Assembly: GCA_026004395.1 (NCBI GenBank)
Contig: BPJB01000001.1
Coordinates: forward strand, 455,343-519,342
Direction: 5' to 3'
Origin: Patescibacteria group bacterium
Lineage (GTDB): Bacteria > Patescibacteriota > Microgenomatia > Levybacterales > UBA12049
DNA: 64,000 bases
Positions 2,653 to 7,145 of this stretch are shown here, one piece after another. A program made the position numbers and the translations under genes. The notes beneath the pieces are model-generated. The model saw only the letters and a list, made by a program, of their open reading frames with translations. It made no database searches and was not told the DNA's origin. The number at the start of each line of letters is the position of its first letter. Within the stretch, counting starts at the first letter, position 1.

Positions 2653-4071
2653 ATGAATTCATATTCCTCTAATTTTTTCAAAAAGAAAACTGTCCACAAT
2701 TATATTGCAATTTTTTCAACTTTTCTTTTTGCTTTAGTGGGGAGCATTGTTTCATTAATAAGATACTGGCAGTATGAAGTTTATTATTTTGATTTTGGTA
2801 TCTTCGATCAAGCTATCTGGGAAGTTGCTCATTTCAGACTTCCTCTGATAGAACACTTTATTCCAGGAATACAAGGTAAAATAATTTTTGCGGATCATTT
2901 TAATCCCAGTATTTTTTTCCTCTCTCCAGTTTATTGGTTTACTGACAGAAGTGAAGCTCTTCTTATAGCTCAAGCAGTTATAGCTGCTTTAAGCGGATAT
3001 ATTCTCTATAGAATTTCGCTTGAAGTCATAAAAAACTCATTTATTTCTTTAGCAATTATGTTGTGTTACTTTCTTTTTGTAGGTCTTCAGAATGCTGTTA
3101 TCACCGAGTTTCATGAGTTGACAATCATGACGCTACCTCTGACACTGCTTTGGTGGAGTGTAATAAAGAAAAAAATTTGGACATATTTTTTATTACTTAT
3201 AATCACTCTTGGGTTTAAGGAATCCCTTTTTTCTTTAGGTATAGGAGTAGGTATTGCGATTTTTATTTTATATAAAAATTGGCGAAAAATTGCAGTGATG
3301 ACAATAATCATATCTTTGATATGGGGAATAGCAGCAATTAAGCTGTTAATTCCATACTTTTCAGGGGGAAGTTATCTTTATTCACCTAAACTTCCAGATA
3401 CAATTTCTGGAATGCTTTTGTCTTTAATTAATGAAGAGGAAAAGAGGAGGACATTATTTTTTAGTTTTGCAAGTTTTGGATTTTTGCCTTTATTTTCTCC
3501 CGCATTTTATCTTACTATGCTTCAAGATTATGCTCTTAGGTTTATGCCGGAAGGATTTTGGACTCGATGGGGTCTTGGGATGCATTACAATGCACAGTCT
3601 GCTGTCATCTTAGCTTTATCATCAACTTATGGAGTAAATTTTATATTAAGATACAAGATAATAAAGCAATATTTATTACATTTAGCGATATTTTTAGTGT
3701 TTTTCGCTTTATTTTTGAATTTTAAAATTCTTCGAGGGCCATACAATCTTATATATAATCCTGCATTTTATAATCACACTAAGAATTTTTCCTATCTTAA
3801 TCAACTGATTGCAAGAGTTCCTAAAAAATCTACAGTTATGACCCAAAATGTCCTTGCATCTCGCTTCACACATCAAAAAGTTTGGTTGTTAAGTATGAAT
3901 TACCAAAAATTTAGACCAGAATATATTCTTATAGATTTTCGTCAAGGACAAAACCCCAATAATTTTTTTGGTACACCAAATGCATATGAAATCTATCTTG
4001 CGTTACTCAATGATCCTACCTATTCAGTTTATTATCAACAAGGCGAACAGGTAATTTTCAAAAGTAAATAA
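2653..4071 (+). CDS. Large polytopic integral membrane protein (>=10 predicted TM segments), function unknown, possibly glycosyltransferase-like/DUF-type
   Basis: 472 aa, highly hydrophobic with many aromatic-rich TM helices; no soluble catalytic motif recognised. Confidence 0.4.
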   Translation: MNSYSSNFFKKKTVHNYIAIFSTFLFALVGSIVSLIRYWQYEVYYFDFGIFDQAIWEVAHFRLPLIEHFIPGIQGKIIFADHFNPSIFFLSPVYWFTDRSEALLIAQAVIAALSGYILYRISLEVIKNSFISLAIMLCYFLFVGLQNAVITEFHELTIMTLPLTLLWWSVIKKKIWTYFLLLIITLGFKESLFSLGIGVGIAIFILYKNWRKIAVMTIIISLIWGIAAIKLLIPYFSGGSYLYSPKLPDTISGMLLSLINEEEKRRTLFFSFASFGFLPLFSPAFYLTMLQDYALRFMPEGFWTRWGLGMHYNAQSAVILALSSTYGVNFILRYKIIKQYLLHLAIFLVFFALFLNFKILRGPYNLIYNPAFYNHTKNFSYLNQLIARVPKKSTVMTQNVLASRFTHQKVWLLSMNYQKFRPEYILIDFRQGQNPNNFFGTPNAYEIYLALLNDPTYSVYYQQGEQVIFKSK

Positions 4072-4196: not shown

Positions 4197-5438
4197 CTAG
4201 ATACCCAAAAAATGTCCCAATCCTCCAAGGAGAGCGCCAATAGTTATGATTATTCCTGAGGAAATAAGTAGTATATTTTGTAATTTTGTATTTTTATATT
4301 TACCCATAAGTTCTTCGTTGTTAGCAATTTTATAGAGAAAAAAGAAGATAACAGGTAGAAATAAACCATTCAGAAAGTCAGCTAATATAGTAAATTGGAA
4401 TAGTTGAAATTGAGGAAGAAGTGTAAAAAACATACCAATAATAATCTGAGTGAAAAAAATCCCGTAAAATAGTTTACTTTTATTAAAATCGACATCAAGG
4501 CTTCCTTCATACCCAAAAAACTCAGAAAAAGCATATGCAGTTGCTAAGGGTACTATGGCTGCTCCCATAAATCCTGCAATAATCAGGCCCGCACCAAAGA
4601 GTGCACTTGCAAATTCTCCAGCAAATGGTTTGATTGCCAGTGCGGCTGATGCGGCATCATTTATTTTAATATGATTTATCCAAAGAGTTGAAATAACTGC
4701 TATCATCATAAGCATTGAAACAGCATTTGTTAAAAAACCACCTACATACATTTCCAACTGATTTATTTTTAATTTATCAATGCTAATTTTTTTATCTTTT
4801 ACATAGCTGTTGATAAAAAACTGACCCCATGCAGTTACTGTTGTTCCTAGTACAGCAATTGCTGTATATAAGTAATTAAAGTTTATATGTTCATAAGGAA
4901 TTATTATTGATTTAAAATGAAGTTTCCAATCAGGCTTTGCCAGAATTGCAGAAAATAAATATGCAATATAAAAAAAAGTTAGAAGCAAAAAAAATTTTTC
5001 AATCTTTGCATAAGAAGTTCTGGTAATAAAATATAAAAGTCCTAATAGGATAAGTGGGAGGAAAATAAAAATATTAATATTAAATAACTCTAGACCTGCT
5101 TTTAATCCTCCAATATCTTGTAATATAACAGCAAAGTTTACCAATGATAATAAGAAAAAGATAAGAAGTGAAATTCGTATGCCATAGCGTTCTCGAATTA
5201 AATCAGCTAATCCTTTTCCAGTAACAACTGCAATCCTTCCGCCTATTTCTTGACTAATAATTAGAATAAGAGTAATAGGTATGAATGTAAGGTGGATGTT
5301 ATATCCAAACTTTGCCGCAGCTACAGAGTATGTTGCTACACCCCCTGCATCATTATCAGCAAATGCTGTAATAATTCCAGGACCTATTACAGCAAGTATT
5401 ATCAATAATTTAATTTTTAGAGAATTTAAAAAATTCAT
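4197..5438 (-). CDS. Nramp-family permease with non-canonical metal site (NRMT-like, putative Mg2+ transporter rather than Mn2+/Fe2+ MntH)
   Basis: N-terminal Nramp signature IGPGIITAFADNDAGGVATYSVAAAKFGY (canonical ...DPGN...QAGAQFGY); TM6 region AVLGTTVTAWGQFF aligns to canonical GATVMPHNLYL. Asp is retained, Asn becomes Gly, MPH becomes TAW. 413 aa polytopic. Confidence 0.75.
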   Translation of the reverse strand: MNFLNSLKIKLLIILAVIGPGIITAFADNDAGGVATYSVAAAKFGYNIHLTFIPITLILIISQEIGGRIAVVTGKGLADLIRERYGIRISLLIFFLLSLVNFAVILQDIGGLKAGLELFNINIFIFLPLILLGLLYFITRTSYAKIEKFFLLLTFFYIAYLFSAILAKPDWKLHFKSIIIPYEHINFNYLYTAIAVLGTTVTAWGQFFINSYVKDKKISIDKLKINQLEMYVGGFLTNAVSMLMMIAVISTLWINHIKINDAASAALAIKPFAGEFASALFGAGLIIAGFMGAAIVPLATAYAFSEFFGYEGSLDVDFNKSKLFYGIFFTQIIIGMFFTLLPQFQLFQFTILADFLNGLFLPVIFFFLYKIANNEELMGKYKNTKLQNILLISSGIIITIGALLGGLGHFLGI

Positions 5439-6655
5439 AATTTTTCAATAATATCTTCGACTAAATCATCATAAGTTACTATACCAATCATTTTTTGGTT
5501 ATCTTCAATGACAGGTAAAGCATATAATTTGTAGCGAAAAAGTTTTTTAATTGCGATCTCTTTTGGGGTAGTGAGATGGATAACTACTACATTTTGTTTC
5601 ATAATAGTATGTATTGGTGTATTATGAGGTTTGGTAATTAGTTCTGATAAATTTAATACTCCGACAAGTTCTTCATTTTTATTTACAACATAAATATATG
5701 CTGAAAAATGTGAGTTAGTAATTTTATTTTTAAACTTTACAATTGCAGATCCTACCGTATCATCGGCAGAAATTGTAATAAATTTGGAATTAATTAATTC
5801 GCCAATTAGAGTTTTTGAATATTTAATCAATTTATATATTTCTTTTCTTGTTTTTTCTGAAACAAGATTGAGTATCTCTTCTCGTTTTTCTTTTGTCAAA
5901 GCTAATAAAATATCTACTGCTTCATCGGGATCAAGATGTTCTATAATCTTTGCATTTTTTTCTGAAGGAAATCTCTTAAATAATGATGTTTGGTAATTTA
6001 CGTTTAAATCAGAAATAACATCGGCTGCAAATTTGTCTTCAAAATTTGTAATAATTTTGTCAACATTGCGTATATTTGTTTTTTCAAGATAAATCGCCAA
6101 ATCTTCAGGCCGCATTCGTTCGAGCTCCTCAATTGATTTTTTAAGCTTTACTTTTCCTGAAGAAAGTTCTATGGGTTCAATATCTCCCCATGATAAAAAG
6201 TGTGGATGGGAATAGATTCCCAGTAATCTATAGAATGGTAAAGCAAATTTTTCAAGACCAATCCAGCGTAAAATACCTCTAATGCCAATATCAACACCGG
6301 ATATATAATATTTGTTTTTATCATCTTTGTACTGAATTGCTACATCATTGACACGAACAACTTTGCCACCTTTAACATCAATGATTTGTTTATCTAAAAG
6401 ATTTTTAACTATGTATAATTCGTTTTCTTGACCATTTTCAATAATCTTATATTCAGGACTGATATTGATTACCTTATCTATTCTCTGGACGAATTCAATA
6501 GGAATTATGATTTTTTTCTTGTTAGAAGTTTTTATAATTATTTTTGTAATAATAGGAGCTTCACTTGCTAAAAAAATAATATCAGTAAGATTACCAATAT
6601 ATGTATCATTTTGAGTGATGACTTTTTTATTTTTGAGTTCTGAAAAGTAGAACAT
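5435..6655 (-). CDS. Soluble MgtE-type cytoplasmic sensor: PRC-barrel-like N-term + MgtE_N domain + CBS pair, no transmembrane domain
   Basis: MgtE_N-like helical region (RPEDLAIYLEKT...HLDPDEAVDILLAL...KREEILNLVSEKTRKEIYKLIKY) followed by two CBS motifs to the C-terminus (..VTYDDLVEDIIEKL). No hydrophobic segments. The stop overlaps the downstream Nramp start by 4 nt (ATGA). Confidence 0.65.
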   Translation of the reverse strand: MFYFSELKNKKVITQNDTYIGNLTDIIFLASEAPIITKIIIKTSNKKKIIIPIEFVQRIDKVINISPEYKIIENGQENELYIVKNLLDKQIIDVKGGKVVRVNDVAIQYKDDKNKYYISGVDIGIRGILRWIGLEKFALPFYRLLGIYSHPHFLSWGDIEPIELSSGKVKLKKSIEELERMRPEDLAIYLEKTNIRNVDKIITNFEDKFAADVISDLNVNYQTSLFKRFPSEKNAKIIEHLDPDEAVDILLALTKEKREEILNLVSEKTRKEIYKLIKYSKTLIGELINSKFITISADDTVGSAIVKFKNKITNSHFSAYIYVVNKNEELVGVLNLSELITKPHNTPIHTIMKQNVVVIHLTTPKEIAIKKLFRYKLYALPVIEDNQKMIGIVTYDDLVEDIIEKL

Positions 6656-7145
6656 ACACTTTCTTCAACAGGCAAATATCTATGGAATATAAGAAGGCAT
6701 ATTCTATATAAATGGTAGATTTTATAAAATCATCAGTATTTTTAGAGAATAGCTAATATTCCCAAGTTTATTCTCTCCTTTTTATATAACAATTGTCTTC
6801 CTATATCTAATTGAAGTTTAGTCTTCATTTTTGTTCATTGTCAAGGAGTAATTATATCTAGATCAAAATATTGAGGAGTTGCAGTATTGATAATATTAAT
6901 TTAAGCATTATTGGCTGAATGTGATTTGCGAATATGAAGATAGAGTTATATATAAAAGTGAATTATTTACTTAATAAAGCTTTGTTATGATTATTCTAAA
7001 AGATTGATCAAGACAACTATTGTAATGAAATTAAAATTTGCAAATAAGAAAATTTAGTACATATATTCCTAATTTTAGAAATCTAGGAGTATATATACAT
7101 ATTTAATTTGTTGAACAAATCAATGATTTGAGTTAAAATTGATTT

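Follow-up and report, generated by a model that had tools for sequence, protein, structure and literature searches.

Why should the sensory half of a magnesium channel be encoded next to a transporter of another family? The question is raised by a 64,000-nucleotide stretch of DNA (hereafter, the window) from a bacterium of the Patescibacteria group (GenBank assembly GCA_026004395.1, contig BPJB01000001.1, positions 455,343 to 519,342). On the minus strand, a gene for an Nramp-type permease overlaps the end of a gene for a soluble protein, here called the partner, which resembles the cytoplasmic part of the MgtE channel and lacks its pore (Table 1). No further open reading frames (ORFs) of at least 80 amino acids (aa) were found on either strand inside the 4197-6655 interval. 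The current NCBI annotation lists the permease as “Mn transporter” and the partner as “hypothetical protein,” and both labels could be improved.

The analysis established the identities of both proteins and their motifs, the conserved linkage of their genes, and the retention in the partner of the acidic residues of the MgtE sites Mg4 and Mg6. The pair is best explained as a bicistronic and probably translationally coupled module for divalent-cation uptake of the known NrmT/NRMT type. On the grounds of homology and gene linkage, we consider with moderate confidence that feedback gating of an uncoupled Mg2+/Mn2+ carrier by its cytosolic partner is the most likely explanation of the arrangement.

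A preliminary description of the locus had given the same ORF coordinates and ATGA overlap, and its observation of a two-gene module was confirmed. Its interpretation was partly supported: the parts had been named correctly, and the claim of novelty was wrong. The supposedly new regulatory arrangement for the Nramp superfamily had already been reported as “mgtE-nramp operons” (Shin et al., 2014, PLoS Genet 10:e1004429; PMC4072509), and the window is an ordinary further example, in a Patescibacteria genome, of that pairing. It adds nothing new in kind. The interest of the locus rests on the function of the partner, for which feedback regulation was proposed in 2014; the survey reported here sharpens the case for testing the partner as a regulator of NRMT. 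The additions made here are the description of the partner as a truncated long MgtE with tandem PRC barrels, the finding that its Mg4 and Mg6 residues are kept and its ATP residues lost, and the occurrence of the pair in a clade without the M-box riboswitch.

The permease and its metal site

NRMTs constitute a fourth class of bacterial Mg2+ importers. Judged by its scores and motifs, the permease is of this type and not a MntH, in agreement with the preliminary description. It matched the Nramp family (Pfam PF01566, E 9.5e-69) over positions 1-356 of the 357 of the profile. In a HMMER comparison with all PDB chains, the best match was EleNRMT (7qia; E 1.8e-75, 258 bits, residues 10-403), and the MntH/DMT structures followed at 2e-14 or weaker, with at most 57 bits. 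The NCBIfam MntH model NF001923 gave 81.8 bits against a cut-off of 430, and TIGR01197 gave 50.5 against a cut-off of 272.5. A classical MntH identity was rejected, as these values are far under the NCBIfam cut-offs and the DPGN and MPH ligands are replaced.

The signature that defines the NRMT clade combines DxxG in helix 1 with TxxA/T in helix 6 (Ramanadane et al., 2022, eLife 11:e74589; PMC8806188), and the permease fits both, on transmembrane helices 1 (TM1) and 6 (TM6). The HMMER alignment placed FADNDAGGVATY of the permease opposite MAGNDAGGISTY of EleNRMT (7qia). D30-A-G-G33 stood opposite D55-A-G-G58, and G198-T-T-V-T-A-W204 opposite G223-T-T-I-A-P-W229, so the manual alignment of these motifs in the preliminary description was right. 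T199 corresponds to T224 of EleNRMT, and T202 stands where MntH has its soft Met ligand. Both histidines of TM6b are absent, with W204 and I209 at the positions of W229 and N234.

Overall, the permease and EleNRMT (7qia/7qic/7qji/7qjj) shared 34% identity over residues 10-403, and they are alike in the D-x-x-G of TM1, the Thr of TM6 and the Trp that replaces the first TM6b His. They differ at A227 (T202 in the permease, both within TxxA/T), P228 (A203), E133 (D108) and Q379 (D354). With MntH proteins (DraNramp, ScaDMT, EcoDMT), the permease shares the Pfam family, the LeuT-type fold and the TM1 Asp, whereas it lacks the DPGN and A-x-x-M-P-H ligands as well as the histidines of the proton pathway, and the HMMER matches were only at E ~1e-14 or weaker.

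Conservation was followed in 77 proteins from related loci, 120 Patescibacteria (candidate phyla radiation, CPR) clusters and 40 Eggerthellaceae clusters. D30, G33 and W204 were invariant in all three sets. T199 was kept in 118 of the 120 Patescibacteria clusters, and T202 was invariant in the Patescibacteria sets and replaced by Ala in Eggerthellaceae. The TM10 position was Asp in 117/120 close Patescibacteria clusters, including the subclade of the window (D354). In Patescibacteria further removed, Asn, Gln or Ser stood there, and all of the Eggerthellaceae sequences sampled had Gln.

EleNRMT transports Mg2+ and Mn2+, does not transport Ca2+, and shows no H+ coupling; T224 is required for its Mg2+ transport, and both of its helix-6b histidines are replaced (PMC8806188). 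Mutation of Q379 strongly impairs transport, this position being conserved and not clade-defining (PMC8806188). By homology with EleNRMT, the permease would be a LeuT-fold SLC11 carrier with an enlarged metal site composed of hard ligands only, and it would take up Mg2+ (and Mn2+) with no coupling to protons. The acidic D354 near the ion site could shift the preference between the two ions.

A role of the pair chiefly in the import of Mn2+ (a transition metal), with a partner that senses Mn2+ or another ligand instead of Mg2+, appears unlikely to us, although a number of observations speak for it. NrmT was found via M-box riboswitches, and Shin et al. concluded that only a subset of NrmT proteins, often linked to a riboswitch, are likely high-affinity Mg2+ transporters (PMC4072509). 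EleNRMT and the NrmT of Clostridium acetobutylicum carry Mg2+; the Acidobacterium capsulatum member prefers Mn2+ (PMC4072509, PMC8806188). The gene for the latter adjoins an MgtE-like gene and is without a riboswitch; its rescue of a mutant in Mn2+ transport was complete, and that of a Mg2+ mutant only weak (PMC4072509). Neither the window nor 16 related loci contained an M-box, EleNRMT carries Mn2+ too, and the NCBI label of the permease also names Mn. The earlier proposal of a Mg2+ uptake system was weakened by the behavior of the A. capsulatum pair and by the missing M-box, while the NRMT signature stands in its favor. This same signature argues against a Mn2+ importer, since it is complete, contains T199, at a position with a Mg2+-specific requirement in EleNRMT, and includes no soft Met. 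In addition, the partner retains the Mg2+-bridging acidic residues of MgtE, and a distant orthologous pair (locus L091) lies behind an M-box.

The partner as a pore-less MgtE module

The preliminary description of the upstream protein as a pore-less cytoplasmic module of MgtE with a PRC-barrel N-terminus was supported. The NCBIfam mgtE model TIGR00400 matched the partner solely over positions 20-253 of its 450, a stretch that corresponds to the cytoplasmic part. No Pfam match to the five-helix pore (PF01769) was found, and the protein stops at the CBS pair. Sequence and fold matches in the PDB were confined to MgtE cytosolic domains and to residues 176-403 of the partner (sequence E 1e-22 to 1e-24; Foldseek E 1e-16 to 1e-17). 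The AlphaFold2 model had a mean predicted local distance difference test score (pLDDT) of 81.8, and PRC-barrel structural matches were obtained from the fold models. Conservation within the family peaks in a motif of the second barrel, Q90-I-I-D93 ... K98-V-V-R101-V-N103-D104. A PDB search found no solved structure of a stand-alone partner.

The C-terminus of the partner consists of the first turns of the would-be MgtE plug helix, and the protein has no hydrophobic segment. A C-terminal membrane anchor was considered and rejected for the protein of the window; such an anchor is also absent from 116 representatives of 395-470 aa. Unlike them, the Eggerthellaceae partner of 450 aa (L081:2644-3996, L083:2645-3997) ends with an acidic plug-like stretch and one strongly hydrophobic C-terminal helix (...AAKIVGGIIGAVLFLVLYTMALFQIIGYDWR), a probable membrane anchor.

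The partner has the MgtE_N and CBS-pair module in common with TtMgtE (2yvx/2zy9; cytosolic structures 2yvy, 2oux, 8gpv). It differs from TtMgtE in the absence of the pore, in a plug helix reduced to its first turns, and in an extra N-terminal tandem PRC-barrel module. Functional residues of TtMgtE, taken from PMC5882242 and PMC5529423, were mapped by a HMMER alignment and an alignment of 75 family members. The acidic residues of Mg4 were retained, D91 as D244 (Asp in 71/75) and D247 as D397 (Asp in 61/75), as was that of Mg6, D95, which is D248 (75/75). Mg7 was mostly kept, with E59 replaced by D212 (Glu or Asp in 53/75). D212, D244 and D248 lie in MgtE_N, and D397 lies in the CBS pair.

The nucleotide site presented another picture. 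Only Y170 of the ATP residues of TtMgtE was kept (Y320); R187, D188, N203 and F227 correspond to S337, E338, K353 and L377. The F227 position was Leu, Ile or Val in 69 of the 75 members, and R187 and N203 were not conserved. The F227A mutant of TtMgtE lost ATP binding in a published isothermal titration calorimetry assay (PMC5882242, PMC5529423). Sensing of ATP by the CBS pair, which the preliminary description had assumed, was rejected on this residue evidence.

These residues also bear on whether the partner could be a metal chaperone or buffer, or a factor for the assembly or stability of the permease, and not a gate, which we consider improbable. “Metal chaperone activity” was listed as an alternative by Shin et al., PRC barrels are generally protein-protein interaction modules (CdpB heterodimers, RimM), and in detergent, EleNRMT by itself proved unstable and required consensus stabilization (PMC8806188). 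Nevertheless, conservation falls on the positions that bridge Mg2+ between domains and serve sensing in MgtE, and the permeases do not require the partner for activity in heterologous cells or in liposomes.

An exhaustive HMMER search with the partner returned 322 clusters at E <= 1e-30, the best 150 of which were examined. Approximately 18 of these 150 were proteins of ~600 aa whose match spans the entire partner with its two barrels; a five-helix region follows, which Pfam assigns to the MgtE pore (PF01769) in several cases. Such “long” MgtE carriers of the tandem PRC extension include P0401, P0405, P0411 and P0442, as well as the product of locus L087:2615-4429. P0401 and P0442 match the whole partner at 25-31% identity, including the QIxD...VVRVND motif, and no Nramp gene adjoined the one long-MgtE locus examined. 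The second-barrel motif, QI[IV]D..G.[KR][IV]V[RK]VND, was common to the stand-alone and the pore-containing forms. From these relationships, the partner would best be described as a PRC-extended long MgtE that lost its pore.

The Eggerthellaceae partner also strongly resembles the N-terminal PRC-MgtE_N-CBS part of two further proteins, P0427 (611 aa) and P0480 (622 aa). Beyond this part, each continues for ~200 residues that contain five hydrophobic segments; the region gave no Pfam match to the MgtE pore and may represent a divergent pore domain.

Table 1. Positions in the window of the two genes, their domains and motifs, and the adjoining regions.
Feature	Position	Strand	Description or basis
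Partner gene	5435..6655	(-)	406-aa soluble protein: tandem PRC barrels, MgtE_N and CBS pair, no transmembrane pore
Permease gene	4197..5438	(-)	NRMT-type SLC11/Nramp permease, 413 aa; Pfam, HMMER against PDB, NCBIfam
ATGA stop/start overlap (partner stop, permease start)	5435..5438	(-)	Sequence
PRC barrel 1, partner residues 1-65	6461..6655	(-)	Pfam PRC E 6.6e-10
Second beta-barrel, partner residues 79-124	6284..6421	(-)	
MgtE_N helical domain, partner residues 181-281	5813..6115	(-)	Pfam E 4.2e-19; alignment to 2yvy
CBS pair, partner residues 282-404	5444..5812	(-)	Pfam CBS x2 E 3.8e-19; residue mapping
TM1 metal-site motif D30-A-G-G33 in place of D-P-G-N	5340..5351	(-)	HMMER alignment
TM6 motif G198-T199-T-V-T202-A-W204 in place of G-A-T-V-M-P-H	4827..4847	(-)	HMMER alignment
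D354, TM10 residue aligned with Q379 of EleNRMT, clade-specific substitution	4377..4379	(-)	Alignment
Intergenic region upstream of the partner, shared with divergent ileS	6656..7145	(-)	490 nt, 76.5% A+T
DUF2079 multi-pass membrane protein, convergent with the permease	2653-4071	(+)	472 aa

Conserved linkage of the two genes

Species-representative genomes were scanned with an NRMT alignment, which yielded 80 loci (42-78% identity), most with Patescibacteria or Microgenomates record titles. Their ORFs were searched with hidden Markov models; two loci were not testable because the sequence ends within 150 nt of the permease start. In all 78 testable loci, a full PRC + MgtE_N + CBS gene adjoined the permease on the same strand, so the neighborhood survey bore out the association seen in the window. 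Where the spacing was measured (76 pairs), the partner was upstream in 74 and downstream in two. Among the 74 upstream pairs, 57 were spaced by <=10 nt and 25 overlapped, 17 of them in the same 4-nt ATGA/GTGA arrangement. The 4-nt overlap in the window implies co-expression of partner and permease, as the preliminary description had held; the complex that it also read from the overlap is not implied by the overlap alone.

The linkage extends beyond these loci. Two Eggerthellaceae permeases, 91% and 88% identical to EleNRMT, are preceded at 3-4 nt by a 450-aa PRC/MgtE_N/CBS gene. The pairing is thus found beside close relatives (<=91% identical) of the structurally solved EleNRMT, with the same upstream PRC-MgtE_N-CBS gene as in the window. 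Five of the six distant stand-alone partners sampled (25-29% identical to that of the window) were directly followed by a permease with the NRMT signature, and one of these pairs (L091) stands behind an M-box. Taken over these genomes, the pairing appears essentially obligatory across phyla.

In one distant stand-alone PRC-MgtE_N-CBS protein, P0429 (L086:891-2168), the linkage is missing: the gene has no Nramp neighbor and lies beside GidB and GreA on a 4.3-kb contig. This indicates that the partner family is not always linked to NRMT.

P0429 speaks for the alternative that partner and permease are only co-expressed and act separately, the target of the partner being, for example, another transporter or an enzyme. 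This alternative, to which we assign little probability, also draws on the occurrence of the most conserved motif of the partner in pore-containing long MgtE, which makes it not specific to NRMT, and on the negative published co-expression test. Against separate action, the linkage is near-universal across phyla, with the order mostly kept and the reading frames often overlapping. Moreover, the two loci of inverted order remain adjacent, and the hydrophobic C-terminal helix of the Eggerthellaceae partner would place that protein at the membrane.

In the inverted loci (L063:4001-6482 and L067:3992-6484, titled as metagenome-assembled genomes of Rickettsiales), the partner lies 3-4 nt downstream of the permease. 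An apparent fusion ORF of 1117 aa in L011 was rejected as an artefact of a run of N. Many of the loci L003-L080, with proteins 45-70% identical to the pair of the window, carry the title “uncultured Gammaproteobacteria bacterium” (third-party annotation, TPA), which looks like a placeholder or wrong label. A 16S rRNA gene lies near the pair in two loci, within ~150 nt in L020 (L020:5380-6895) and within ~1.7 kb in L044 (L044:1-1081).

Comparison with the operons of Shin et al. (C. acetobutylicum Ca_c0685; A. capsulatum ACP2976-ACP2977) demonstrated the same gene order and strand as in the window, with an Nramp-related outgroup permease immediately after the gene for the MgtE cytoplasmic N-terminal part. 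There were also differences. An M-box is present in a subset of the published operons and absent from the window and the sampled Patescibacteria relatives; the C. acetobutylicum partner gene is split, whereas that of the window is a single gene; and the host here is a Patescibacteria genome of ~1.08 Mb. The term CBS has no occurrences in the main text of Shin et al., whereas the partner of the window has a CBS pair.

Possible control of the pair and its surroundings

Shin et al. speculated that the MgtE fragment serves in “cytoplasmic feedback regulation of transport” or as a metal chaperone (PMC4072509). The 2022 structural paper on EleNRMT does not discuss the partner, and the structural work was done without it (PMC8806188). 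No later paper on the partner and no mention of PRC barrels together with MgtE were found in the literature searched.

Feedback gating by the partner could proceed as follows. The partner, a soluble and pore-less cytoplasmic half of a long MgtE, would respond to high cytosolic Mg2+ when the ion bridges acidic residues of MgtE_N and the CBS pair (D244/D397, D248), and it would then adopt a compact state. In that state, it would bind the permease non-covalently at its cytoplasmic face and so restrain an otherwise unregulated uniporter. We infer the substrate of the permease, the contact between the two proteins and the direction of regulation from homology and linkage. Since NRMTs are uncoupled carriers according to the EleNRMT study, something should limit the influx, and the partner is the obvious candidate for such a limiter. 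The partner was dispensable for transport in the published assays of EleNRMT and of C. acetobutylicum NrmT, which accords better with a regulatory role than with that of a core subunit.

A number of points weigh against feedback gating. The MgtE sensor acts through a covalently attached plug helix. This helix is absent in the partner, so the coupling to the permease would have to be non-covalent, which is the main difficulty. Sites Mg2 and Mg3, which involve the plug, would be missing from a partner that ends at the first turns of the plug; Mg5 is half lost (TtMgtE D226 is K376), and the ATP-site residues of MgtE are not conserved. On the side of the permease, Asp (D354) takes the place of a TM10 Gln important to EleNRMT. 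Neither 240 NRMT clusters nor the 150 best partner representatives included a partner-Nramp fusion, and Rfam scans revealed no M-box in the window or in the 16 related loci. Finally, in the sole published co-expression test, the A. capsulatum fragment, expressed with its permease in Bacillus subtilis, left the rescue of the Mg2+ mutant unchanged, and that permease was Mn2+-like (PMC4072509).

A broader form of feedback gating is possible, and we put it forward tentatively: PRC-PRC-MgtE_N-CBS may be a portable Mg2+-sensing cassette derived from an MgtE that bore a pore, which now docks non-covalently on a LeuT-fold NRMT and gates it. If so, one sensor family would control two structurally unrelated transport architectures, and the question of the “ancillary gene” left by the 2014 work would be answered. 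As no riboswitch was found in the Patescibacteria loci scanned, the partner would then be the only visible layer of Mg2+ control there.

The 490-nt intergenic region presumably holds the promoter of the pair. Rfam scans at gathering and at permissive thresholds gave no match in this region and no M-box (RF00380) in the window, and nhmmer and blastn comparisons of the region with all related loci revealed no conserved leader. One consensus promoter-like site was located at 6844-6815, and the count of such sites was no higher than in shuffled sequences. On the other side of the pair, 125 nt separate the stop codons of the permease and the DUF2079 gene, and no terminator-like site or hairpin was detected between them. 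For a genome of 1 Mb, 490 nt is a long spacer; among relatives, the distance upstream of the pair ranges from -18 to ~1000 nt. In L091, the M-box aptamer (L091:1-144, 94 bits) stands directly upstream of the distant partner-NRMT pair, and a riboswitch of the c-di-GMP-II type (L091:3887-3971) is located further downstream, ahead of an unrelated surface-protein gene.

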